DNA of 64,000 bases from an uncultured Planctomycetales bacterium (GCA_964618455.1 CAZUAQ010000010.1:1-64000); one strand, 5' to 3'. Shown: positions 9,971 through 23,812, counted from the first letter of the stretch. Notes: generated by a model from the sequence alone, not told the origin. Made by a program: numbers and translations.

Positions 9971-11461
9971 TCATGGGTTGCCTTCGAAAGCCTGGGCATC
10001 GTGGCGATCCACATCGCCGTCCTGATCGAGATCGGCCGCCACGCACGCTTCGTCGATTCCGGCCTCGCTCAAGGTCTTCATGCATTGTTTCAGGAGGTCG
10101 CGATCGTTGTGATCCACGCGTCCATCCCCGTTGAGGTCCTTCCGGCTCTGGGTCAGCCCGTAGTCGTTCGTGTATTCGACGATGGACATGGCCAGGTCCG
10201 CCTTTTCATGCGGCTTACCGTTCACGTAGGCATGGCCCGGGACATCTTCGTTCATCTGCCACGTGTTGACGTCGGGGGAGGTCCATTCGAGGTAGTACAT
10301 TCGGCCCGGCTCGAGTCGGACCTCGTCGCGCTCCCACACTGCCACGGCGCGCGCCTGGGCAACCAGCGCCACACCGTGACCGGTCTTTTTCGGGCCGATC
10401 GGCTGACCGCCGGGCTGGTCGTACAGCTGGAACGTCACGGGATGCGCCGGTGGATGAAACTCGCCGGTCGCAAAGACCGCTTCGACCGCCGCCAGGCTTG
10501 TTCCGCTCGCCTTGAACGTCTGTCCGTGCGAGGTACCGGTGCCGATCAGCGTGCTGAACTGCTGCGTGGTGACCGGCGCGTAGTTGCACAGCGTGCCCGG
10601 CGCGCCGCCGCTGACGTAACCGTACGCGTCGAGATCCTTCCGCTCCATGCCGTCTACCCAGAGGTGGCCATGGGCGTAGCCATCCCCGGTATCCTGACGT
10701 ACCACCATTGAGAACGTTTTCGACTGTGAACTCGGGTCGCGCCAGAAGCGCATGGCGTAAGTCTTGCCGGGGGCAAGCTTCACTTCCTCGCTGCGATACG
10801 CCACCCAGAAGATGTGGATGATCGGGTCCGTGCCCTGCGACAGAAACCGCGACCGTACCGGCGAGATACGACGCCACGATTCCGGCGGCCCCTCATTCGG
10901 TTCATGAATCGCGTAGTTAAGCGTCAGGAAGTAGTGATCACCGGACTTACCCGCGAGCTTGGTGGCGACGCGCGTGACGTCGTTGCCCTCCGCGCGGAAG
11001 GTCTGGTAGAAATCGCTGCCCCACAGCCACGGCGAATCGCTCCACTCGGTATGGGCCTTATCGAATATGACGGAGTAGTGCGCGGGCGTGTTCAACCGCG
11101 CGCCGTCGAGTTTTTTCTCACCGCCGGGGATCTCGAGGTTCATGTGACAGGCGAAGGCAGGGATGTTGTCGTAGCTCAGCGCGGCCAGGGCGTACTCGCC
11201 CTTCGGGAAGCCTTGCTCGACGAAGGCGGGTTTGATCCCGAACCAGCCTGGCGGATTGTCGATGGTCGGCGCGCCGAATCCGAAACCCGGGCCGAGCGGG
11301 CAGACGTAGATATTCTGCTTGGACCAGTGATGAGGCGTCGCGTCGCGACCGGTCAGGCCGTCGGTCGTCAGCATGCCCTGCACCGCCTCGGCGGCGTGAA
11401 GGGTCGGCGTTATGCCATTGCATAAGAACACGATCAACGTCAGACGAAATGCAATTCTCAT
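9971..11461 (-). CDS. Secreted protein with C-terminal dockerin-like Ca-binding repeats
   Basis: Signal peptide MRIAFRLTLIVFLCNGITPTLHA; C-terminus DLNGDGRVDHNDRDLL...ADLDQDGDVDRHDAQAF resembles dockerin type I / EF-hand-like repeats. Confidence 0.6.
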   Translation of the reverse strand: MRIAFRLTLIVFLCNGITPTLHAAEAVQGMLTTDGLTGRDATPHHWSKQNIYVCPLGPGFGFGAPTIDNPPGWFGIKPAFVEQGFPKGEYALAALSYDNIPAFACHMNLEIPGGEKKLDGARLNTPAHYSVIFDKAHTEWSDSPWLWGSDFYQTFRAEGNDVTRVATKLAGKSGDHYFLTLNYAIHEPNEGPPESWRRISPVRSRFLSQGTDPIIHIFWVAYRSEEVKLAPGKTYAMRFWRDPSSQSKTFSMVVRQDTGDGYAHGHLWVDGMERKDLDAYGYVSGGAPGTLCNYAPVTTQQFSTLIGTGTSHGQTFKASGTSLAAVEAVFATGEFHPPAHPVTFQLYDQPGGQPIGPKKTGHGVALVAQARAVAVWERDEVRLEPGRMYYLEWTSPDVNTWQMNEDVPGHAYVNGKPHEKADLAMSIVEYTNDYGLTQSRKDLNGDGRVDHNDRDLLKQCMKTLSEAGIDEACVAADLDQDGDVDRHDAQAFEGNP

Positions 11462-11543
11462 CGAAGGTTATCCTCCCGGAAGGCGACGAAACTCACTACA
11501 GCAGAGATACAGGATACCCGTGTTCGTACCACACCGCCTGCTT

Positions 11544-11972
11544 TCAGTCGGGATCAAATTCCAACTCCATTTCGCTCCACGCACACGATGTCTCATCCAA
11601 GAACCAGCCGCGGATCGGTCGATCCTGCGTGGGCTCTAAAGAGACGATCACATAGAGCACGTCGGGCCACGCGCGGGAGGTGTCGAATTTGGAGGGGACG
11701 GCGGACGCGTCGGGATGCGAATGGTAGTAGCCCACGATGTCGATCTCTCGCCCGCGGGCGTCGCGCTGCAGACGGAGTTGCGCGCGGGCGTCGAGTTCGT
11801 AGCGGTGCGATCGATCGCCTTCCCAGGCGTTGGGCACGGCATGCACCTCGTGAATCTCGATCCGACCGACCGCGCTCACCCCCATCAGCACGCCGCAGCA
11901 CTCCTCGGGCGCCGCCGCGCGGGCGTGATCGAGCAGGACTTCACGATGCGCGTGGGACAGCACGACTTTCAT
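11544..11972 (-). CDS. JAMM/MPN+ metalloprotease (Mec+-like)
   Basis: 142 aa; motifs EECCG...HSHP...S..D (JAB/MPN catalytic signature); clustered with ThiS-like and E1 genes. Confidence 0.8.
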   Translation of the reverse strand: MKVVLSHAHREVLLDHARAAAPEECCGVLMGVSAVGRIEIHEVHAVPNAWEGDRSHRYELDARAQLRLQRDARGREIDIVGYYHSHPDASAVPSKFDTSRAWPDVLYVIVSLEPTQDRPIRGWFLDETSCAWSEMELEFDPD

Positions 11973-11981
11973 GGGCAGCGC

Positions 11982-13139
11982 CTAAAGGACCACCTGGTTC
12001 AGGGCATCAATGAGGACATCGATCTCCTCGGCAGTATTGAAATGCCCCGGGCTGACGCGGACCGCCCCGTCGGGGAAAGTGCCGAGTTCCTCGTGAATGT
12101 ACGGCGAACAGTGCAGGCCCGGCCGCACGGCCACCTGGAAGGAATCGTCCAGGATGGTGCCCAGCTCCGCCGGGGCAAGTCCCTCGGCGGTGAAGGCGAC
12201 GACGCCGCATCGGCGTGAGGCATCCTGGCTGCCCAGCAGCGTGAACCGATCGTCATCTTCCAGGGCCTGCGTGATCCTGGCGGCCAGGGTGCGCTCATGC
12301 TCAAGGGCGTTCTCAAACCCGAAGTCGTTCACGAATCCGATCGACGCCCCGAGCCCTGCCACACCGACGGTGTTCGGCGTTCCGCCCTCGAGCCAGTACG
12401 GATACAGGTGCGGCTGCGTGGGCGATGAGGAATCGCCACCCGTACCACCCTCGCGGAACGGTTTCGGATCCACACGCTCGCCGACGTAGAGCGCGCCGGT
12501 GCCCGTCGGCCCCAGCAAGGCCTTGTGACCGGGGAACGCCAGCAGATCGACGTTCATCTTTCGCACCGAGATCGGTACGAGTCCGATCGATTGCGCCGCA
12601 TCCAGCAGAAACAGCACGTCTGCTTCCCGCGCGATGCGTCCGATCTCCTCGGCGGGCTGAATCGTGCTCAGCACGTTGCTGCAATGCGTGCACGCGATCA
12701 ACCGCGTCTTCGGCGTGAGGGCCTGGCGGATCGCATCGGGGTCGATGAACCCGCCCTCGCTCATCGGCAAACGCGTGAGCGTGATGAAACCATTATCGGC
12801 CATCGCCTGCAGCGGGCGCGACACACTGTTGTGCTCGAGCGTGGTGGTGATGACATGATCGCCCTCGCAGACGACACCCTTGATGGCGATATTCAGCGCG
12901 TCGGTGCCGTTCATCGTCAGCACCATGCGGTGGGCATCGGTCCCGTCGATGATTTGTGTGAGCTTGGCGCGGACGTTGTCGAGCATGTTCTCGGCGGCGA
13001 CGGCCATGCGATGCCCGGATCGTCCGGGGTTGGCGGCATCTTCCGCGAGAAAGCGCGCCATCTCCCCCGCCACGTTGGGGGGCTTCGGCCAACTTGTTGC
13101 CCCGTTGTCCAGGTAAATCATATCGAACGTTTGCCTCAA
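11982..13139 (-). CDS. Cysteine desulfurase (aminotransferase class V, NifS/IscS/SufS-like)
   Basis: 385 aa; fold-type I PLP enzyme; motifs YLDNGATSWPKP, FPGHKALLGPTGTGALY (PLP-Lys), catalytic-loop Cys. Confidence 0.75.
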   Translation of the reverse strand: MRQTFDMIYLDNGATSWPKPPNVAGEMARFLAEDAANPGRSGHRMAVAAENMLDNVRAKLTQIIDGTDAHRMVLTMNGTDALNIAIKGVVCEGDHVITTTLEHNSVSRPLQAMADNGFITLTRLPMSEGGFIDPDAIRQALTPKTRLIACTHCSNVLSTIQPAEEIGRIAREADVLFLLDAAQSIGLVPISVRKMNVDLLAFPGHKALLGPTGTGALYVGERVDPKPFREGGTGGDSSSPTQPHLYPYWLEGGTPNTVGVAGLGASIGFVNDFGFENALEHERTLAARITQALEDDDRFTLLGSQDASRRCGVVAFTAEGLAPAELGTILDDSFQVAVRPGLHCSPYIHEELGTFPDGAVRVSPGHFNTAEEIDVLIDALNQVVL

Positions 13140-13163
13140 TGTTGGGTATCGCCGTTTCCGGCG

Positions 13164-14237
13164 TCAAGATCCGATGTACCGCGCGTAGATCGTTCGCGCG
13201 ACTTCCGGCTTGTCCGTCCCTTTGACGATGGCGCGGCCGTCGGCAAAGACGGTCAGTTCGTACTCGGGCAACTGGGCCTTGAGCATGAACGCGTTGAAGC
13301 GCGGCGTACCGCCCTCGGCATCCTTGACCTTCTGGGCGATGGTCGGAAAGTCGATGCGAATCCCTTCCGGCGGCGTGACCTGTACGGCATTGCGGCCGCA
13401 CAGCGTGGTCGCGCTGCTGCCGAACTTGCCCTCGAGGAATTCGAAGTTCTTCTGCTTGCAGCAGGGGCAGTTGCCCATCTGGTAAGCCTTCTGCACCTTG
13501 AGCATCGAGAACCGCCCATCCCACGCATCGAAGTAGAGCAACCGCCGGTTCAGGGCATCCATCCGGCCCATGAGGATCTTCATCGCCTCGAGCGCCTGGT
13601 GACTGGCCACCATGTTGACGACCGGCCCAAGCACACCGGCGGTATCGCACGTCGGATTCATCTCCGGCGGCGGGGCCTGCTCGAAGATGCATCGCAGGCA
13701 CGGCGTCTCGTTCGGCAGAATCGGCATGGCCAGCCCCGTCGCGCCGATGCACGCCCCGTACACCCACGGCCGCTCCGTCTTGACCGCCACATCGTTGATC
13801 AGAAAGCGCGTCTCGAAGTTGTCGGTGCCGTCCATTAGCAGGTCGACATCCTCGCAGATGCTCTCGATGTTGCGATGGTTCACGTCCTTCACGACCGCCT
13901 CGACGGTGATGTTGGAGTTGATCCGCTGAATCTTCCGCTTGGCGGCCTCGGACTTCGGCAGGTTGCTGGCGATATCGTCCTCGTCGAAGAGCACCTGGCG
14001 CTGGAGGTTGTTGAACTCGATGAAGTCGCGATCGACGATGCGCAGGTAGCCGACGCCCGCGCGGGCCAGCGTGTTGGCCAGCACCGTCCCGAGCGCGCCG
14101 CAGCCGATCATCACGACCTTGGACTGCAGGAGCTTGCGCTGCCCTTCCTCGCCCACCGGTTCGTAGAGCATCTGCCGGGAGTACCGGGCCAGCTCGGCAT
14201 CCTGTTCAATCTTCGCCGCTTCTTTACTGATTGCCAT
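13164..14237 (-). CDS. ThiF/MoeB/HesA-family E1-like adenylyltransferase with C-terminal extension
   Basis: ARYSRQ...GQRKLLQSKVVMIGCGALG Rossmann/ATP motif; CLRC...CPCC zinc motif; extra ~100 aa at the C-terminus. Confidence 0.8.
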   Translation of the reverse strand: MAISKEAAKIEQDAELARYSRQMLYEPVGEEGQRKLLQSKVVMIGCGALGTVLANTLARAGVGYLRIVDRDFIEFNNLQRQVLFDEDDIASNLPKSEAAKRKIQRINSNITVEAVVKDVNHRNIESICEDVDLLMDGTDNFETRFLINDVAVKTERPWVYGACIGATGLAMPILPNETPCLRCIFEQAPPPEMNPTCDTAGVLGPVVNMVASHQALEAMKILMGRMDALNRRLLYFDAWDGRFSMLKVQKAYQMGNCPCCKQKNFEFLEGKFGSSATTLCGRNAVQVTPPEGIRIDFPTIAQKVKDAEGGTPRFNAFMLKAQLPEYELTVFADGRAIVKGTDKPEVARTIYARYIGS

Positions 14238-14313
14238 GTTCCATCATTCCCAATGCGTGTGTTCCGTCTTCGCGATGCGTCCGGCGCACATTCAACCGGC
14301 GCCGGCATCGCGA

Positions 14314-15042
14314 TCAGCCGTCATCTTTGCCGAAATCCGCCAGAAAGCCGTCCGGCGGTGGTTCTTTTTCTTCTCTCACCTTGCTCACGTCGACGTTCAT
14401 CGGCGGCGGTGTGACGCCCTTCCGGCGTGCGGGATCCTGCGCCTGCTGCTGCCCTGATGGATTCGTCGTCCGTCCATCTTCCTTCTGCGACACCACCCGC
14501 CGCAACGCCTCCGCCCGCGCTGCCGCCTGATCGGCATCCACGCGTTGCATCTCTCCATAGGATTCGGAGCCGATCGACCGCGCCATCATGACGGGATCAT
14601 TGCCGATCTTCAGAACACTCCGATGCGCGATGAGGTTATTCCTGGCCATGTAGATGAAGTAAGCGCCAATCGCAATGAACAGGATATCGTTCATGAAACC
14701 GTATCCCAGCATGACGAGGAGTCCACTGCTGGTTATCCAGGCGGCTCCGATGATCGCCGTGATGATGGCATCGATGACCAGCGCATACGGCACAGCCAGA
14801 AAGCAGAGTGCCGCGGCGATCAACAATGCAAAGCCGCCATATTGAATCGACCAGTTGTAGGTCACTGCAGCAAACGACAATAAAGCCGCCTCCTGCTTGG
14901 GTTCGTACAGCGCAATGACGCGCGAGACCAGAACCAGGAGAACTCCACCGATCAGCGCCGACATCGCCGCGTTGGACATCACCTGCTTCGCATACGGCGT
15001 CTTCCAGACCGAACCCGATTGTTCCTGCGGTGCTTCCTGCAT
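14314..15042 (-). CDS. Integral membrane protein, function unknown (in the sulfur-carrier operon)
   Basis: About 4 predicted TM helices; start chosen at MQEAPQEQ (ATG reverse complement at 15040-15042); C-terminal polar tail. Confidence 0.45.
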   Translation of the reverse strand: MQEAPQEQSGSVWKTPYAKQVMSNAAMSALIGGVLLVLVSRVIALYEPKQEAALLSFAAVTYNWSIQYGGFALLIAAALCFLAVPYALVIDAIITAIIGAAWITSSGLLVMLGYGFMNDILFIAIGAYFIYMARNNLIAHRSVLKIGNDPVMMARSIGSESYGEMQRVDADQAAARAEALRRVVSQKEDGRTTNPSGQQQAQDPARRKGVTPPPMNVDVSKVREEKEPPPDGFLADFGKDDG

Positions 15043-15112
15043 GCCGATCCCTCGATTCTTTGCGTGTCGGTGCCCCGTGGTGATCGCGCCGCGGGCGTCC
15101 GCGGCGACCAAC

Positions 15113-15646
15113 TCACCCCTCCACGATGCTCTTCTCGATCGGTTCGACCTCCGCGCCGGTCTGCTCCAGGAAAGCGACCGCCTGGTCGACCTGGCTTTCC
15201 GGCCCTTCCAGCATCAACGCCATGATGCCGACCGTCTCGCCGGTACTCGACTGCCGCAGGTCGAACGCGACATCGAACCGGTGGGCCATCTCCCAGAGGA
15301 TCGGTGCGCGGTAATGTTCGAGCTGCCACGTTACCCAGAGTTTCCGCCCGACGCGCGGCTCGTCCTGGGAGCCGAAGGCCTTCTTCGGCCGTGGCGGAAC
15401 GTCGCCCTCGTGCGGATCGCTCTTGAGCACGTTCACGCCGACGCCATTCTTGCGAAAGAACGCCTCGGCATCCTCGACCGCCTCGCGCGAGCCCCACAGC
15501 GACAGCACGACATGCCCTTCGCGATGAGACACGTTCGCCTTGTCGAAGTTGTAGACCACGTCATGCGCCTGCCCCATCTGCCAGAGCAGGTTGCCGGTCA
15601 CCAGGTCCGTCGGGAACGTCAATTCCAATGTGTGTTCAATCGCCAC
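15113..15646 (-). CDS. Tandem NIL-domain-like small protein
   Basis: 177 aa with two repeated about 80-aa modules (GNLLWQMGQAHDVVYNF.../APILWEMAHRFDVAFDL...) resembling the NIL domain of MetN C-termini and sulfur-metabolism proteins. Confidence 0.45.
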   Translation of the reverse strand: MAIEHTLELTFPTDLVTGNLLWQMGQAHDVVYNFDKANVSHREGHVVLSLWGSREAVEDAEAFFRKNGVGVNVLKSDPHEGDVPPRPKKAFGSQDEPRVGRKLWVTWQLEHYRAPILWEMAHRFDVAFDLRQSSTGETVGIMALMLEGPESQVDQAVAFLEQTGAEVEPIEKSIVEG

Positions 15647-15690
15647 GCGACTCGTCCTTCATGTATCGGCACGCTTCACGCACCTTCCCA

Positions 15691-15966
15691 TTAACCGCCC
15701 GCCACCGCCTGGATAATGCTCACGTCGTCGCCTTCCTTGACCGGTGTTTCTAGGTTCTCCTGAAAGCGGATGTCCTCGTCGTTGACGAAGATATTCACGA
15801 AGCGGTTCAGTGAGCCGTCCTCCTTGAAGAGCCGCGGTTTGAACTCGGCGTACTTCCCGCAGAGCCCGTCGAGCACCTCGCCGACCGTGCCGCCCGACGC
15901 CTCGACCACGTCGTTGCCCTCGGTGAACTTGCGCAACGGTGAGGGTATTCTTACTTCAATCGCCAT
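15691..15966 (-). CDS. ThiS/MoaD/CysO-like sulfur-carrier protein (ends -AGG)
   Basis: 91 aa MAIEVRIPSPLRKFTEGNDVVEASGGTVGEVLDGL...DDVSIIQAVAGG* with terminal Gly-Gly; found as the C-terminal part of the spurious 447-aa ORF 15691..17034; ATG at 15964-15966 (reverse complement). Confidence 0.75.
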   Translation of the reverse strand: MAIEVRIPSPLRKFTEGNDVVEASGGTVGEVLDGLCGKYAEFKPRLFKEDGSLNRFVNIFVNDEDIRFQENLETPVKEGDDVSIIQAVAGG

Positions 15967-16049
15967 GTCTGTCGTCTCCTCCACATGCCGTCTCGCGATT
16001 CCGAGTCGCGACGCTATTGCCATTCTCCTGTCCTCGATGCCCGTCGATT

Positions 16050-17300
16050 TCAACCCACGCCGGCCGTCTCGCGCCGGGCGCGGATGATCTCGTCGAACGC
16101 GCTGAGCTTCGGCGGAATCACCGGCGGTTCCTCGAGCCGGTCCACGACTGCCTCGATGGTCTTGAGTCCCTGGCCGGTCACGCTGATGACGATGGACTCG
16201 TCGCGCGGGATGCGGCCCTGCTCGATGAGCTTCTTCGTCACCGCCACGGTCGTTCCACCGGCGGGCTCGGTCCAGAGCCCTTCGCACTCGGCCAGTTCCT
16301 TGATGCCGTCCACGATCTCGTCGTCGGTGACGCTCTCGGCCCAGCCGCCGGATTCCTGCACCGCCTGGACCACGTAGTAGCCGTCGGCGGGGTTGCCGAT
16401 GGCGATCGACTTGGCCAGCGTGTTCGGTTTCTGCGGGGCGATGAGATCGGTGCCCTCGTGAACGGCCTTGACCACCGGATTGCAGCCGCCCGCCTGCGCG
16501 GAATACACCTTGCACGGCGTATCCTCGACCAGTCCGATCTTCACGAACTCGCGGAACGCCTTGTGCACCTTGGGCAGGATCGTTCCCCCGGCGGTCGGCA
16601 CCACGATATGCTGCGGCAGACGCCACCCGAGCTGTTCCGCCACCTCGTAACCATAGGTCTTCGCGCCCTCGGTGTAGTACGGCCGAAGGTTCACGTTGAC
16701 GATCGCCCAGCCGTACTTGTCGGCGATTTCCGCGCAGAGGCGGTTCACGTCGTCGTAGTTGCCCTCGATCTTGACCATGTGGGGCTTGTAGATCAACGAG
16801 CCGACGACTTTGCCCAGCTCGAGATCGTGGGGAATCATGACGTAGGCGGGCTTGCCGACGTGGGCGGAGTGGGCAGCGACGCTGTTGGCCAGGTTGCCCG
16901 TGCTCGCACAGCCGAAGGTGTCGAAGCCGAACTCCAGCCCCTTGCTGATGGCCACGCTGACCACGCGCTCCTTGTAGGACAGCGTGGGCACGTTGACCGA
17001 GTCGTCCTTGATGTACAACTCGCGGCAGCCCCACCGCGCGCCAAGGTTCTTCGCCCGACGAAGCGGCGTCCAGCCGGAATGTTCTCCCGTGGCAGGCTCG
17101 CCTTCGACGGGCAGCAGATCACGGTAACGCCACAACGAGGCCGGGCCGGCCGCGATCGACTCGCGCGTCACCTTGCCCTTCATGGCCTCGTAATCGTATT
17201 CCACCTCGACCGGTCCGAAACACATGTCGCAGACGTGAATCGGCTCGATGGGATATCGTTGACCGCACTCCCGGCACTTCAGCCCGATGACATAACTCAT
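16050..17300 (-). CDS. Threonine-synthase-like PLP enzyme with N-terminal Cys4 zinc ribbon
   Basis: Start at MSYVIGLKCRECGQRYPIEPIHVCDMCFG (ATG reverse complement at 17298-17300, RBS aggaag); fold-type II PLP motifs (TLSYKERV... Lys, GCASTGN, PTAGGT); ThrC-like length. Confidence 0.75.
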   Translation of the reverse strand: MSYVIGLKCRECGQRYPIEPIHVCDMCFGPVEVEYDYEAMKGKVTRESIAAGPASLWRYRDLLPVEGEPATGEHSGWTPLRRAKNLGARWGCRELYIKDDSVNVPTLSYKERVVSVAISKGLEFGFDTFGCASTGNLANSVAAHSAHVGKPAYVMIPHDLELGKVVGSLIYKPHMVKIEGNYDDVNRLCAEIADKYGWAIVNVNLRPYYTEGAKTYGYEVAEQLGWRLPQHIVVPTAGGTILPKVHKAFREFVKIGLVEDTPCKVYSAQAGGCNPVVKAVHEGTDLIAPQKPNTLAKSIAIGNPADGYYVVQAVQESGGWAESVTDDEIVDGIKELAECEGLWTEPAGGTTVAVTKKLIEQGRIPRDESIVISVTGQGLKTIEAVVDRLEEPPVIPPKLSAFDEIIRARRETAGVG

Positions 17301-17455
17301 GCCTGACTTCCTGCTTTCGTGGCCCATGCTCCCGGGCGGTATGCCGAGAGACAGGATTGGACACCGACCCGCTGCAATCCCGAACGAAAGACCCCAGGCA
17401 TCTTGTCGAAAGGGGAGGTCTGGGCAAGGCCGGCAAGGTTCCGAAGGCATGCCGC

Positions 17456-17500
17456 CACAAAAAAACCTCTTTCCACCCGGTGGGAGAAAGAGGTCCGATT
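17456..17500 (-). terminator. Intrinsic terminator (expression platform of the SAM riboswitch)
   Basis: Minus strand cctctttctcccaccgggtggaaagagg hairpin followed by ttttttt; lies between the aptamer and the start codon at 17300. Confidence 0.7.
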
Positions 17501-17520
17501 CGCTGAAAGGAATGGGCCCC

Positions 17521-17652
17521 CTTATCTTCCCCGCGCCGATTCGGGCCGGGTTGGAGTTAGCACCCTACTGCGGATCAGCCGATCGGGCCTTTCCCAGCGG
17601 GTTGCTGTGGCTTCACAGGGCCAATCCCTCCGCCACTCTCGATAAGAGACCT
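17521..17652 (-). ncRNA. SAM-I (S-box) riboswitch aptamer
   Basis: Minus strand: cucuuaucGAGAGuGGcGGAGGGAuUGGCCCugUGAAgccacaGCAACCc...GGUGCUAAcUCCaac...GAAGAUAAG; matches the S-box consensus (P1 cuuauc/gauaag, AGAG.GG, GGAGGGA, UGGCCC, GCAACC, GGUGCUAA). Confidence 0.8.
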
Positions 17653-18051
17653 GCAATGTCTAATGCCCGCATTGTAGTCATGCCCGTCGGCGGCGTCAAA
17701 CGAGGAGGGCCACCACCGCCGATCCGGCGTCCTCGGGCTCCCCACCCGCGGGAGGACGGTCCCCGCGCCCGCTCCACTGCAGAAAATGGCGTTTTTATAG
17801 GCGCGTGATCTCGCAGACAGCTATAATGACAGGTGTATCGGCGGAAGGAACGACTCGCGTTCCCCGCACGCGTCCGACGCCTGTCACCTTTCGGTGAATG
17901 CATATCGACGGCGTCCGATGCTTGCCCTGTCCGCCGCCTGTCGCGGAAGCCTGTGACGCGAAAATGGGATGTCTCGGTACACGTCGCTTGGACGTGGCGC
18001 TTTGGTTTTGCCGCGAAGGCAGATCCATCCCCCATCGACGGGAGGTCTTAC

Positions 18052-18909
18052 ATGTCCGGTCGAGTTCCTCAAGCAATCCTACGCCATCGATCTTCGCGCG
18101 CATTCACCTTGATCGAGATGCTCGTGGTGGTGGCCATCATCGCACTGCTCGTGGCGATTCTGCTCCCATCACTCAGCAAGGCGCGCCAGGCCGCACGGGT
18201 GACGCTGTGCCTGTCAAACCTGCGATCCATCGGATCCGCGTCCACCATGTACATGAGCGATAACCGGGACTGGCTCCCCGTCGGCCCCCCGGACAAACTC
18301 TACTGGCGCTACCAGAAGAACGGTCGCACGTTTACGTCGCGGAGCTTCGTCTCCAATGCCCGGCCCTATCCCTACTCCAACTGCCATTGGGGCGGACGCC
18401 GGGCCGAGCAGGTTCACGGCAACGATCCGGAAACATTCAACCGCCCGCTGACGCGCTACCTCTATCCGAAGTCGAGCCTCGACAACGAGATGCCGCTCTT
18501 CCAGTGCCCGGGCGACACCGAACTGACGAATGACAACTTCACCAAGCTGAAACGCTCGTTCAGTGACATCCGAAAGGACCAGAGCATCTACGAGATCTGC
18601 GGCAACAGCTATTACAACAATCCCTGGTTGGATTCCACCATGGAAGAGAAACGTCACGCCCTGGTCACCAGCCGTGTCGTGCTCTATGAAGACGCGGTCT
18701 TCTTCATCGACAAGCGCCGTTACGGCAACGAGGGATCGGAATTCTATCTGCCGGCCGTGCAGAGCATGGGATGGCACGGCTCCTTCTCGAAGCACAACCT
18801 GCTCTTCCTCGACTTCCACGGCGAGTTCAAGTACGCGGACACGCGTGCCGACAGCGGCCCGGGTTGGATCGTCGAGAACTACTTCGACATCATGGACTAC
18901 TACTATTGA
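18052..18909 (+). CDS. Prepilin-type N-terminal cleavage/methylation + H-X9-DG (DUF1559) protein
   Basis: Start MSGRVPQ.. with RBS gggagg; RAFTLIEMLVVVAIIALLVAILLPSL prepilin leader/TM; typical planctomycete DUF1559 C-terminus. Confidence 0.8.
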   Translation: MSGRVPQAILRHRSSRAFTLIEMLVVVAIIALLVAILLPSLSKARQAARVTLCLSNLRSIGSASTMYMSDNRDWLPVGPPDKLYWRYQKNGRTFTSRSFVSNARPYPYSNCHWGGRRAEQVHGNDPETFNRPLTRYLYPKSSLDNEMPLFQCPGDTELTNDNFTKLKRSFSDIRKDQSIYEICGNSYYNNPWLDSTMEEKRHALVTSRVVLYEDAVFFIDKRRYGNEGSEFYLPAVQSMGWHGSFSKHNLLFLDFHGEFKYADTRADSGPGWIVENYFDIMDYYY

Positions 18910-19062: not shown

Positions 19063-20517
19063 TTATCCCTGCAGCAGCGACAGCACGCTCTGCGAGGTGG
19101 TGTTCGCGATGGCCAGCACCGAGGTGCCCGCATTGACCAGAATCTGGTTTCGGGTCAATCGGGAGGTTTCGGCCGCGAAGTCCGTATCGCGAATGGCAGA
19201 CTCGCTGGACATCAGGTTTTCCATCGTAATGGTCAACGAGTTGATGTTGGTCTGCAGCGTGTTCCGCTCAAAGGCGCCCAGCCGTCCTCGGAGCACCGCC
19301 ACCTGGCGGATCGCTTCGTTGACGATGAGTGACGATTGCGCGGCGTTCGTGACGTTGCGAATCACTTCAAAATCACCGCCTTCCTTGATCTGACTCAGGA
19401 ACCCGACGTTGGCGTTTCCGAGCCGGGAAGCCGCGATCGACTGCACGCCGATGTTCACCTGCTGGTTCGGACTGACGTCCGGACCGAGCTGGAACAGGGC
19501 GCCACCGCCGGTGACCGCGAACGCGGTCGACCCGATCCCGAAGCTTTCCTCGAGGGTCAGCGAGAGATCGAGATTGCGTGTGTTCAGGACGAGGTCGAGA
19601 CCGCGACCGATGCTCTTCGCACCGTTGATGGTCGCGACCGCGTCGCGCCCGTCGTCGCGCTTGAAACCGTCGCCCAGCGTCACCCCGTTCTCGTTCACGA
19701 GATCGAAGTTGCCGCTCCCGGGCAGAAGTGAGACTTCCACGAACTCGTCACTTCCGTAGCCGACGCTCTGCAGCGTCATCCCGCTGGCGGGATTGGCGCT
19801 GTTGATGAGCTGGGCCTCGATACCGCTGCCTTCGGTCTCCCGGTTGATCGCGGCCACGATGTCCGAAGCCGTGGTCCCCGAGACGAACTCGATGACCGTC
19901 GTTCCCAGCACACCGCGCACCTCGATCGAGATGCTGCTGGCAATGGACGAGGTCTGGAACTGCAGCATCGCCTTCTGCGCCGACGTCGTTACGGCGACGT
20001 CCACGGGGATGAAGCTGGCGTTCCCGAACTTCGCGGAATGGACCGCGAGTGTGGCGATGGCGGAACTCTGCACACCGCTGGTGATGTAGCCGAGATCTCC
20101 GTTCAGCAGAGGTCTCCCGGCAAAGGTTGTCGAATTGGCGATACGCGTGATGGACTCGATGGCCGAGTCGATCTGCAATTGATTGGCACGCTTCTCATCG
20201 TCGGACAAGGCGGCATCGTTGGCAATTTCAACGATCAGACCCTGAATATCGATGAGCAAGGCGGCCGCTTCGTCGAGGGCGCCTTCGGTCGTGGCGATGA
20301 TGTTGATCGCTCTTTGCGAGTTGCTGATGGCCTTCTGGACACCCGCAATCTCGGCCCGCAGACTCTCGGAATTGATGAGACCTGCCGGATCATCGGCACC
20401 ACGATTGATACGAAGACCACTCGAGAGGCGTTCCAACGAGACTTGAAGATCACGTTGCGTGCGACTCAACGTGCGTTGCGCGACTATCGCCGGTACGTTT
20501 GTGTTGATCCTAGCCAT
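19063..20517 (-). CDS. fliC: Flagellin
   Basis: N-terminal MARINTNVPAIVAQRTLSRTQRDLQVSLERLSSGLRINRGADDPAG and C-terminal LTRNQILVNAGTSVLAIANTTSQSVLSLLQG flagellin D0/D1 helices. Confidence 0.9.
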   Translation of the reverse strand: MARINTNVPAIVAQRTLSRTQRDLQVSLERLSSGLRINRGADDPAGLINSESLRAEIAGVQKAISNSQRAINIIATTEGALDEAAALLIDIQGLIVEIANDAALSDDEKRANQLQIDSAIESITRIANSTTFAGRPLLNGDLGYITSGVQSSAIATLAVHSAKFGNASFIPVDVAVTTSAQKAMLQFQTSSIASSISIEVRGVLGTTVIEFVSGTTASDIVAAINRETEGSGIEAQLINSANPASGMTLQSVGYGSDEFVEVSLLPGSGNFDLVNENGVTLGDGFKRDDGRDAVATINGAKSIGRGLDLVLNTRNLDLSLTLEESFGIGSTAFAVTGGGALFQLGPDVSPNQQVNIGVQSIAASRLGNANVGFLSQIKEGGDFEVIRNVTNAAQSSLIVNEAIRQVAVLRGRLGAFERNTLQTNINSLTITMENLMSSESAIRDTDFAAETSRLTRNQILVNAGTSVLAIANTTSQSVLSLLQG

Positions 20518-21856: not shown

Positions 21857-23812
21857 TCAGATAAAGTCCAGCAGCGATAACTGCAGAATCCGCGAACCGG
21901 TCAGCAGGTTCGCCTGCAACGCCGTCTGGGCCTGTTGAAATCGGGTCACCGCCTCGGTGTAGTCCAGGTCCTGAACCTCGCTCAGCAGCGCGGTCGAGGA
22001 CACCACCGCGTCTTCCGTCAGTTCCAGTCGCGTGTTCATCGCGCGGGAGCGGGCACCCATCACGCCCTGCAGCCGGTTCGTCTGATCGATGAACGCGTTG
22101 ATCCGTTCGCCTGCGTCGGTGATCGCCTGCACGTCACCGGCCTTGAGAGAATCGAAGAGATCGATCAGCGCCGTGAAGACACTGTCCACCCGAACGGTGC
22201 CCGGATCGTTGCTGAACAGTTCCGTGTCTCCGGCATTGGTCACCGTCGTGTTCAAACCGAGATCGTCGATCGCCGACGAGAAGTTTTGTCGCTCGATCCG
22301 CAGCGTGCCCGTCCCGCCGGTCGCGTCGGTGATGAGAATGCCGTTGCCCGTGGGCGGGAGCGATGCCGTCACCGACACGCCGGCAGCGCCCGCCGCCGCG
22401 TTGATCGTGTCGAGGACGTCCTGAAGCGTGGTCGCCCCGTCGAGATTGACGTTTACGATCTGACCGTCCTTGGCGATGATCCGGAAGTCGTCCTGACCGT
22501 CCTTGAACGACACGCCTTTGCCGTCGTTCAGCGTGCTCAGTTCCGTGCCACCGTAGAGCGTGCGGATGCCGAGTTGCGTGGCGGTGTCGCCGCCCGCTTC
22601 GCCGATGCTCATCCGCGTGCCCGACGAGATGTTCACGACGTCGAGGCTGCCGTTTTCCTGATCGATCCGCACGCGCACCTGGAGGCCCGTCGACTCGATG
22701 GCGTTGATGACATCGCCGATCGTTTCCGCCGCGCTGAGATCGACCGTCGCACTCTGGCCGCCGTTGGTCACCTGCAACGAACCCAGCACGAGGCCGGTAC
22801 CGCCCAGCAGGCTGTCCAGCGTGGTGCGCGGAGTCAGTTTCGGATTGAGATCGTCGCCGCTGATCGTGGCGGCCCCGGTGCCGAGGATACCGAGGTCGCG
22901 TGCGGTCGTGGTCTGACCGACTTCTTCGACGGTCAGGTCGCTGCCGCTGATGCTCAGGTCGATCCCCGTTCCGGCGGCGTTGATCTCAGCGAAGAAGTCG
23001 CTGCCCGCCCCGACGGTCAGGCCGGCGTTCTTCGCCGCCTGGTTGATCAGGTCGACGACGTCACCCACCGTATCCGCCGATCGCAAGTCCACCGTGAACG
23101 AGAGGTCCGGCGAATCGAGCGTGAACTTCACGTACGATTTCTGGATGCCCGTCCCCGCCGCGCCGTGGAGATCGGCCAATCGCGTATCGGCGGTCAGGAT
23201 CGGATCGAGATCCACGTAACCTTCATGAATACCCGTCAGCGATCCGAAGAGTTCCGCCCCGTCGAGATTGATCTTGGGATCGAGAGTCTCGTCGACGGAA
23301 GTCGTCAGGCTGTTCGTATCCCCGACATACTCGACGCCGCCGAAGATCTGGGTGAACGGCGGCGACTGTGTCTGCTGCCCGCCGAAGAGATAGATGCCCT
23401 TGTATTGGCGGTTCCCGATGGTCACCATCTGGTCGATCATCGCGCGGATGAGTTCCGCCTGAGACTCCCGCTGATCCTGGTCCGCGTGGCTGTTCACCAT
23501 TTCCAGGGCGATGGCGTGGGCGTCGATCAGCAGATCGTTGACGTCCTGGATACCAACGTCGGTGGCGGTGAGCACGCCGTCGGCATGACGGATGTTGGCG
23601 AGAATCTGCTCCTGCCGCTCGAGGATCTGTGAGAGCTGAACCGCCTTGGCCGCCCCGACCGGATCCTCGCTCGGCGCGTTCAGCTTCCGCCCCGACGACA
23701 GTCGGTTCTGCTCGAGGAACATATCCAGCGTGTTGTTCCGCAGTGAACTCAGCAAGGAGAGCGTCTGCAGGCTCGAACTCACGCGTGCGATATTGATCGG
23801 TGTGATAGCCAT
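21857..23812 (-). CDS. flgL: Flagellar hook-associated protein 3
   Basis: Flagellin-like N-terminus (NRLSSGRKLNAPSEDPVGAAKAV) and C-terminal helix; 651 aa; downstream of flgK. Confidence 0.75.
   Translation of the reverse strand: MAITPINIARVSSSLQTLSLLSSLRNNTLDMFLEQNRLSSGRKLNAPSEDPVGAAKAVQLSQILERQEQILANIRHADGVLTATDVGIQDVNDLLIDAHAIALEMVNSHADQDQRESQAELIRAMIDQMVTIGNRQYKGIYLFGGQQTQSPPFTQIFGGVEYVGDTNSLTTSVDETLDPKINLDGAELFGSLTGIHEGYVDLDPILTADTRLADLHGAAGTGIQKSYVKFTLDSPDLSFTVDLRSADTVGDVVDLINQAAKNAGLTVGAGSDFFAEINAAGTGIDLSISGSDLTVEEVGQTTTARDLGILGTGAATISGDDLNPKLTPRTTLDSLLGGTGLVLGSLQVTNGGQSATVDLSAAETIGDVINAIESTGLQVRVRIDQENGSLDVVNISSGTRMSIGEAGGDTATQLGIRTLYGGTELSTLNDGKGVSFKDGQDDFRIIAKDGQIVNVNLDGATTLQDVLDTINAAAGAAGVSVTASLPPTGNGILITDATGGTGTLRIERQNFSSAIDDLGLNTTVTNAGDTELFSNDPGTVRVDSVFTALIDLFDSLKAGDVQAITDAGERINAFIDQTNRLQGVMGARSRAMNTRLELTEDAVVSSTALLSEVQDLDYTEAVTRFQQAQTALQANLLTGSRILQLSLLDFI

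Follow-up and report, generated by a model that had tools for sequence, protein, structure and literature searches.

Known Protein-Thiocarboxylate Routes and the Planctomycetales Locus

The closest described counterpart of the operon analyzed here is the MetM/MetO route of Streptomyces albulus, in which homocysteine is formed from O-phosphohomoserine (Hasebe et al. 2024, Appl Environ Microbiol 90:e01247-24, as summarized in GapMind 2026). The operon lies at positions 11544–17300 of a 64,000-nucleotide (nt) stretch of DNA from an uncultured Planctomycetales bacterium (GCA_964618455.1, CAZUAQ010000010.1:1-64000); this whole stretch is called the window below. It consists of genes for a threonine synthase (ThrC)-like enzyme, a ThiS-type sulfur carrier, a tandem NIL-domain protein, a membrane protein, an E1-type adenylyltransferase, a cysteine desulfurase, and a JAMM metalloprotease. 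Judging from the phylogeny of the ThrC-like enzyme, the S-adenosylmethionine (SAM) riboswitch in front of it and the conserved neighbors, this operon very probably serves homocysteine synthesis of the MetM/MetO type, which depends on a protein thiocarboxylate, and is repressible by methionine. The initial annotation of the window had proposed a route that combines a ThrC-like enzyme, a ThiS thiocarboxylate, and O-phosphohomoserine under SAM control. This proposal corresponds to the published MetM/MetO route, and the enzyme falls in the matching clade.

GapMind 2026 lists the steps of the route as the MetO carrier, the Mec JAMM hydrolase, the MoeZ E1-sulfurtransferase, and MetM. In its summary, MetM is a ThrC homologue that is often misannotated as threonine synthase. 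A 2025 mSystems paper places a SAM riboswitch upstream of S. albulus metM, with metO adjoining, and a 2026 preprint cites the same route. The window shares with this system a ThrC-homologous enzyme beside a ThiS-type carrier ending in Gly-Gly, behind a SAM riboswitch, and the involvement of an E1 and a JAMM protein (Mec). The differences are in gene content. The actinomycete operon has two genes (at locus L081 of Nonomuraea gerenzanensis, the riboswitch is followed by metM-like, metO-like, and then groEL genes), and MoeZ and Mec are encoded elsewhere. In contrast, the operon in the window itself encodes an E1, a desulfurase, and a JAMM protein, besides the tandem NIL protein and the membrane protein. 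MoeZ has a rhodanese domain, whereas the E1 of the window has none and carries another C-terminal domain, with a desulfurase gene adjacent. From this gene content, it is plausible that the E1-desulfurase pair is functionally equivalent to MoeZ.

The cysteine pathway of Mycobacterium tuberculosis (CysO/CysM/Mec+/MoeZ) shares the carrier family (3dwg_C, 71.9 bits), an E1, a JAMM protein, and a fold-type II pyridoxal 5'-phosphate (PLP) enzyme acting on a phosphorylated hydroxy-amino acid. Unlike that pathway, the sole fold-type II PLP enzyme of the window operon is ThrC-like and not of the CysM/CysK type, and its product would be homocysteine. Related loci of the Binatia type differ further in that CysM-like and MetM-like genes are arranged around one carrier. 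In the methionine pathway of Wolinella succinogenes, HcyS/HcyD/HcyF/MetY (Krishnamoorthy and Begley 2011), a protein thiocarboxylate is likewise the sulfur donor for homocysteine, and genes for an E1 and a JAMM-type hydrolase accompany that of the carrier. It uses MetY, a fold-type I O-acetylhomoserine sulfhydrylase, with O-acetylhomoserine as the substrate, but the window operon encodes no Cys_Met_Meta_PP enzyme; only the desulfurase gives a weak secondary hit to this family (28.7 bits). The initial annotation had regarded the operon as a mirror of both pathways. The PLP enzyme differs from those of both: neither a CysM-type enzyme nor MetY is in the operon.

Phylogenetic Position of the ThrC-Like Enzyme

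The first gene (16050–17300, minus strand) encodes the candidate MetM-like homocysteine synthase, 416 amino acids (aa) long from the ATG at 17300. It matches PALP with 203.6 bits and has a CxxC...CxxC zinc ribbon at its N-terminus. The PLP lysine is invariant; K110 corresponds to K61 of Thermus thermophilus. The comparator for the actinomycete system was found by tblastn against PLSDB in Nonomuraea gerenzanensis NZ_LT559118.1 (L081/L086). At L081, a SAM riboswitch (68.7 bits) precedes a 411-aa ThrC-like protein and a 91-aa ThiS protein ending in GG. The window enzyme is 51% identical to this riboswitch- and ThiS-linked protein. The canonical ThrC of Nonomuraea shows 64% identity to M. tuberculosis ThrC and 32.6% to the window enzyme. 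NZ_LT559118.1 is filed as "plasmid I" and is an 11.85-Mb chromosome with three ThrC-family loci, including the riboswitch-metM-like-metO-like pair and a canonical thrC.

A neighbor-joining tree with 60 bootstraps was made from the window protein, 11 relatives from other phyla, the Nonomuraea L081 protein, and canonical ThrCs. All 60 bootstraps recover a single clade of the window protein, the 11 relatives, and the riboswitch-linked Nonomuraea protein. A separate group, likewise with 60/60, comprises the canonical bacterial ThrCs, and the canonical ThrC of Nonomuraea also falls outside the MetM-like clade. A phylogeny had been proposed as a check in the initial annotation, and its outcome is that the ThrC-like protein is not placed within canonical threonine synthases.

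Four substitutions, T88L, S155N, N157R, and R160Y (T. thermophilus numbering), are seen in all 13 clade members, and T, S, N, and R are kept at these sites in at least five of six ThrCs. T88, S155, and R160 are presumably phosphate-site residues of ThrC. Based on the tree and the substitutions, the window enzyme belongs to a MetM-like lineage distinct from canonical ThrC.

Control Region and Operon Structure

A SAM-I (S-box) riboswitch aptamer is located upstream of the first gene, at 17519–17648 on the minus strand. Its score with RF00162 is 81.1 bits, where the gathering threshold is 44.4 (E = 1.6e-17), and the match spans the full length of the model (positions 1–108 of 108); 218 nt separate its end from the first gene. 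The minimum-free-energy fold contains an intrinsic terminator as the expression platform, at ~17459–17494 on the minus strand. This strong hairpin, ACCUCUUUCUCCC...GGGUGGAAAGAGGU, lies 25 nt downstream of the aptamer and is followed by U7. It was established by folding; a bulge in the stem is the probable reason why a simple terminator scan missed it. The riboswitch with its hairpin and U7 has the architecture of a transcriptional OFF switch. The SAM riboswitch noticed in the initial annotation is thus found again by the RF00162 match, together with a terminator.

Directly upstream of the riboswitch is a promoter-like site, TTGACG-17 nt-TACAAT (17671–17699, minus strand), which agrees with the consensus at 10 of 12 positions. 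No other such site is present in 11300–17950, and shuffled sequences contain 1.3 on average; hence, it is a consensus match only. The riboswitch, the terminator, and the promoter-like site all lie outside the coordinates 11544–17300.

Translation of the window shows seven open reading frames (ORFs) on the minus strand, in the same orientation and head to tail from 17300 to 11544. The gaps between them, in order from the ThrC-like gene, are 83, 44, 70, 76, 42, and 9 nt. No terminator-like site was found on the minus strand inside the cluster by the simple scan, which also missed the riboswitch terminator. Gene identities were assigned by Pfam and NCBIfam profile searches of the window ORFs. Gene calls in this high-GC DNA were based on the GC content of third codon positions (GC3) and homology; a greedy choice of the longest ORF picks antisense ORFs. 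The likely start codons are at 15042 for the membrane protein and at 13121 for the desulfurase. All seven co-oriented and tightly spaced genes of the initial annotation are at their positions, and the profiles (PALP, ThiS, NIL, ThiF, Aminotran_5, and Prok-JAB) agree with the identities given there.

Conservation of the Gene Neighborhood

A scan of one genome per species revealed 80 loci with 59–74% identity. They are from Phycisphaerae/Tepidisphaerales, Binatia, 'delta' lineages, Brocadia, Omnitrophota, and Margulisiibacteriota. Neighbors were counted by per-family phmmer/hmmsearch in 62 loci, those whose sequence continues for 3 kb or more on the downstream side of the MetM-like gene. A ThiS-type carrier neighbors the MetM-like gene in all of these (62/62), an E1 in 56, a NIL protein in 44, and a separate CysM-like PLP enzyme in 42. 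A cysteine desulfurase is seen in four, all of them Phycisphaerae, and a JAMM protein in none.

Homologous SAM-I aptamers are present upstream of related operons. Sufficient upstream sequence is available for 72 loci, and 53 of these have the SAM-I core motif upstream in the same orientation; it lies just ahead of the MetM-like gene or, where an E1 gene comes first, ahead of that gene. Among the loci tested with Rfam, the riboswitch was confirmed in 9/9 motif-positive ones, and none was found in 4/4 motif-negative ones.

Close relatives (80–82% identity) have the order of MetM-like, ThiS, tandem NIL, membrane protein, E1 (357 aa), and cysteine desulfurase. In Omnitrophota and Margulisiibacteriota, the operons also encode a PHO4-family transporter, a JAMM protein, sulfite reductase, a ThiS-CysM fusion, and TusA. 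In Binatia-type operons, CysM is added, with genes for sulfate activation at a greater distance. Its recurrence across phyla puts the arrangement far outside what chance would give, and the seven-gene operon under the SAM riboswitch is confirmed as real.

Some of these loci contain unusual genes. The fused ThiS-CysM proteins of Omnitrophota and Margulisiibacteriota (L080:2313–3449 and L074:7659–8762) are 367–378 aa long with ThiS and PALP domains, and they adjoin the MetM-like operon as well as genes for sulfite reductase and a TusA-like protein. In three Binatia-type loci (L013:11857–13438, L050:11897–13665, and L029:11884–13637), the stretch past NIL encodes a truncated ThiF-like ORF of 119–192 aa, corresponding to the N-terminal part only. 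The same stretches encode a 409–485-aa protein with a weak Radical_SAM match (23.6 bits), below the cut-off.

Several facts weigh against the assignment to the MetM/MetO route, and some of them favor another explanation. The ThrC-like gene could encode an ordinary or bifunctional threonine synthase/threonine deaminase, whose link with the sulfur carrier would be incidental or regulatory. The protein scores 257.7 bits with TIGR00260 (thrC equivalog), above the cut-off of 167.1. Every database name among its homologues is "threonine synthase". Its best relatives in the PDB are ThrC structures with 32–37% identity, which lack the ~50-aa N-terminal zinc ribbon. The ThrC of the cyanobacterium Microcystis, 51.6% identical to S. 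albulus MetM, showed mainly threonine deaminase and weak threonine synthase activity in vitro and did not raise methionine, according to the mSystems 2025 paper. Besides, the orthology to S. albulus MetM/MetO rests on the Nonomuraea proxy, which was recognized only by its matching architecture. The JAMM gene is also rare in the operons of relatives: it is near the operon in one of the 80 other loci (L074), and it was not identified in the operons of the close relatives L082 and L084.

An ordinary threonine synthase nevertheless appears improbable. Every one of the 60 bootstraps separates the clade from canonical ThrC, a form that Nonomuraea possesses in addition. The presumed phosphate-site residues are changed in 13/13 clade members. 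The control element upstream is a SAM riboswitch, not a threonine or T-box element, in 53/72 loci, and ThiS is adjacent in 62/62. GapMind 2026 also explicitly treats the name threonine synthase as a frequent misannotation of MetM.

Sulfur Carrier, E1, and Cysteine Desulfurase

The carrier gene (15691–15966, minus strand) is 83 nt downstream of the MetM-like gene. It encodes a 91-aa beta-grasp protein of the MetO/CysO type, which matches ThiS with 58.3 bits and ends with AGG before the stop codon. It is 47% identical to the 91-aa neighbor of the MetM-like gene in Nonomuraea. The solved structures most similar to it are 4n6e_B (deposited as "ThiS/MoaD family protein"; 81.8 bits) and 3dwg_C of M. 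tuberculosis (71.9 bits), both CysO-type carriers of the cysteine pathway. HcyS needs C-terminal trimming. The carrier of the window already ends with GG, so trimming would not be needed. In some Binatia and 'delta' carriers, one residue (GGL or GGR) is present past the Gly-Gly (L013:10288–10596; L029, where the ThiS ORF ends at 10583). These carriers would need C-terminal trimming because of the extra residue, and no JAMM gene is near.

The E1 (13164–14237, minus strand) is a ThiF/MoeB-type adenylyltransferase of 357 aa. It matches ThiF with 259.7 bits and PRK12475 with 367.5 bits, below the cut-off of 510. The match with Escherichia coli ThiF (150 bits) covers residues 13–264. No rhodanese domain was matched in Pfam or NCBIfam. 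Instead, the protein has an extra C-terminal domain of ~95 aa with two invariant motifs, (T/S)LCGRNAVQ, which contains a cysteine, and FxDGRAIxKGT. This long E1 is found only beside a cysteine desulfurase, and E1 proteins at other loci are 255–273 aa long. From this distribution and the conserved cysteine, the extra domain may stand in for the rhodanese domain of MoeZ.

The desulfurase (11982–13121, minus strand) has the class V aminotransferase fold and is 379 aa long from the ATG at 13121, with the ORF extending to 13139. It matches Aminotran_5 with 284 bits and TIGR01977 with 398.2 bits (cut-off 377). The translation contains the PLP-lysine motif GHK and the catalytic cysteine in GLHCSP. 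The presence of a desulfurase and the absence of a CysM-like gene suggest that the sulfur is derived from cysteine via a persulfide.

The boundary between the E1 and desulfurase genes contains additional genes in some relatives. In L084 (4608–6828), an 82% identical relative, three genes are inserted here: a 136-aa protein without a Pfam match, a 392-aa AAA_15/AAA_21 ATPase, and a 195-aa DUF4276 protein. This looks like a mobile ATPase and DUF4276 pair that landed in a biosynthetic operon. In L002 (11956–12516), a DinB_2-superfamily gene (65.9 bits) is between the long E1 and the desulfurase. Several Phycisphaerae loci are alike, and the window has no gene there. The DinB_2 superfamily includes thiol-transferase-like proteins.

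The relationship of the carrier to 4n6e_B and 3dwg_C raises the question of whether the operon produces cysteine or another thiol product, such as a thio-cofactor or a natural product, with the ThrC-like enzyme acting on O-phosphoserine or another substrate. Many related operons indeed encode a CysM-like enzyme and sulfate-assimilation genes. Such a product seems distinctly improbable. In 42/62 loci, the CysM-like gene is distinct from the MetM-like gene beside it, so different jobs are expected. The presence of CysM-like and MetM-like genes around one carrier therefore argues for different products of the two enzymes. Moreover, the control element senses SAM, and the desulfurase of the operon consumes cysteine. 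A scan of flanking ORFs found no ThiG, ThiH, MoaE, or natural-product genes near the operon.

Thiamin or molybdopterin biosynthesis was also considered for the ThiS-type carrier and its E1. It was rejected because ThiG, ThiH, and MoaE genes are absent from the flanks and the riboswitch senses SAM.

JAMM Protease

The last gene (11544–11972, minus strand) starts 9 nt past the desulfurase stop codon and encodes a JAMM/MPN+ metalloprotease of 142 aa, similar to Mec and HcyD. It matches Prok-JAB with 84.1 bits, and its best match in the PDB is 2kcq (57 bits). The JAMM motif E...HSHx7SxxD is intact in the translation (EECCG...HSHPDASAVPSKFD). None of the 62 loci counted above encodes a JAMM protein near the operon, and an operon-encoded JAMM protein is a rare feature that is peculiar to the window among its close relatives.

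An E1, a small beta-grasp protein, and a JAMM protease could also constitute a ubiquitin-like conjugation system, in which the E1 attaches the small protein to targets and the JAMM protease removes it. The best-named NCBIfam matches point to such a system of small archaeal modifier proteins (SAMPs): SAMP1 (59.6 bits), the SAMP-activating E1 UbaA (211 bits), and desampylase (91.5 bits). All three scores are under their cut-offs (60, 450, and 130, respectively). A PLP enzyme and a SAM riboswitch lead the operon, and nearly all of the related operons lack a JAMM gene. In archaeal SAMPs, sulfur carriage and conjugation are not mutually exclusive. Considering these facts, SAMPylation-type conjugation has only a very slight chance of being the function of the operon.

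A defense system of the cyclic-oligonucleotide-based antiphage signaling (CBASS) type, in which JAMM and E1 proteins are combined, was rejected because Cap2/Cap3 matches are marginal.

NIL-Domain Protein and Membrane Protein

The NIL-domain protein (15113–15646, minus strand) is 177 aa long with a GTG start and matches NIL with 69 bits in two stretches. Both halves match one and the same single ~80-aa NIL gene of other phyla, and by its sequence the protein is a tandem duplication. No Fer4 domain was matched in Pfam. A full-database HMMER search at E <= 0.001 revealed only 186 cluster representatives, which are mostly 80–110 aa long; about 15 are tandem. The family shares the motif (N/D)IRxA(S/N)V and a C-terminal VEPIEKNVIE. 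The former aligns with the NNIISA segment of the C2 domain of E. coli MetN, although the sequence match to this domain is insignificant (E = 0.56).

The AlphaFold2 model has two beta-alpha-beta-beta-alpha-beta domains, with a predicted local distance difference test (pLDDT) score of 88.5. The top Foldseek matches are tandem ACT-type modules that bind amino acids for regulation: the IlvA regulatory domain with isoleucine bound, SerB2, and the small subunit of acetohydroxyacid synthase. The C2 domain of MetNI is also among the matches, with 21–25% identity. The template modeling scores (TM-scores) are only ~0.35, which is suggestive of the fold class and no proof of function. NIL belongs to the same Pfam family as the C-terminal C2 domain of MetN, the ATPase of a methionine importer, and the model resembles tandem ACT modules, such as those of IlvN/IlvH and the IlvA regulatory domain. 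Unlike these, the window protein is free-standing. Our best guess is that the NIL protein is a small ACT-like ligand-sensing regulatory or accessory subunit. By analogy with ACT-type small subunits, it could, for example, regulate the MetM-like enzyme or the E1 as a subunit that senses methionine, SAM, or homocysteine.

NIL-domain proteins are genetically tied to homocysteine formation in another context. In methanogens and Desulfovibrio, NIL-ferredoxin proteins (with COG2122 in some cases) are genetically required for an unrelated homocysteine route with DUF39 (Rauch 2014; Price 2018). There, NIL is fused to ferredoxin and works with DUF39 on aspartate semialdehyde. In contrast, the NIL protein of the window is stand-alone, tandem where most relatives have a single domain, without an Fe-S domain, and beside a ThrC-like enzyme and a ThiS-type carrier. 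DUF39 was not matched by the operon genes or the 12 flanking ORFs scanned. In the literature search, the NIL domain was not linked to any thiocarboxylate pathway beyond general discussion.

The membrane protein (14314–15042, minus strand) is 242 aa long from the ATG at 15042; the ORF extends to 15111, corresponding to a length of 242–265 aa. The hydropathy profile shows about four hydrophobic/transmembrane segments. There is no Pfam or NCBIfam match, and a word-indexed search found only three homologues. It occupies the same operon position in the close relatives L082–L084, and one distant member (P0124) is beside argJ. The C-terminal motif EPxP(D/E)GFLAxxG is invariant in the family alignment, at the end of a variable and probably disordered tail; this pattern suggests a docking peptide. 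The membrane protein is probably a lineage-specific passenger, and it may not belong to the pathway. Because homologues are few and one is in an unrelated context, it is not treated as a pathway component here.

The initial annotation had set both proteins aside as uncharacterized extras. The NIL protein is, however, a conserved companion of such operons and no oddity of the window, being present in 44/62 loci, whereas the membrane protein is lineage-specific.

Flanking Genes

The neighbors of the operon are unrelated to sulfur or methionine metabolism. They encode a dockerin-containing protein, a Band 7 protein, a DUF1559 protein, and flagellins. Two flagellin-family genes (19063–20517 and 21857–23812, both minus strand) and the gene for the DUF1559 protein (17833–18909, plus strand), which has a prepilin-type N-terminal methylation motif, adjoin the operon. 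DUF1559 proteins with this motif are typical of Planctomycetota. At the start of the window, the 5' end of 23S rRNA (1–330), tRNA-Ala(tgc) (884–957), and tRNA-Ile(gat) (1007–1080) are encoded on the minus strand. This group is the 16S–23S spacer of an rRNA operon that is cut off at the beginning of the window.

Proposed Pathway and Its Implications

The analysis establishes the gene identities, the operon structure, the riboswitch with its terminator, the place of the enzyme in the MetM-like clade, and the conserved linkage to the carrier, the E1, and the NIL protein. On this basis, a pathway can be proposed in which the substrate, the sulfur source, the hydrolysis of the adduct, and what the NIL and membrane proteins do are drawn from the published route and the chemistry of the families. 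When SAM is low, the SAM-I riboswitch would allow read-through of its terminator. The E1 would adenylate the C-terminal Gly-Gly of the 91-aa carrier. The adjoining desulfurase would give persulfide sulfur derived from cysteine, and the acyl-adenylate would be converted to the carrier thiocarboxylate (carrier-COSH). The conserved cysteine in the extra C-terminal domain of the E1 may relay the sulfur, in place of the rhodanese domain of MoeZ. The ThrC-like PLP enzyme would then eliminate phosphate from O-phospho-L-homoserine and add the thiocarboxylate at C-gamma. Homocysteine could be freed by the JAMM hydrolase, either directly or after an S-to-N acyl shift. That a ThiS-homocysteine adduct forms and is released by JAMM is inferred only from the analogy with the described systems, and the rarity of JAMM genes in the operons of relatives speaks against this last step.

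The core of this pathway is already known, because it was published for Streptomyces in 2024. The conserved NIL companion and the rhodanese-less E1 paired with a desulfurase are putative additions to the published scheme. It can be speculated that NIL is a hitherto unrecognized functional component of thiocarboxylate-dependent homocysteine/cysteine synthesis and that Phycisphaerae have a cysteine-fed variant of the route. Both together are a tentative proposal, which we consider somewhat doubtful. If true, the cysteine-fed variant would be a cystathionine-independent route from cysteine to homocysteine.

In the operon of the window, the carrier, the E1, the sulfur donor, the hydrolase, and the synthase are encoded in one riboswitch-controlled unit, which is handy for pathway reconstitution. 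In Planctomycetota, Binatia, Omnitrophota, and other phyla, thousands of proteins annotated as "threonine synthase" are probably MetM-type homocysteine synthases. Their re-annotation alters the predictions of methionine prototrophy for many uncultured lineages.

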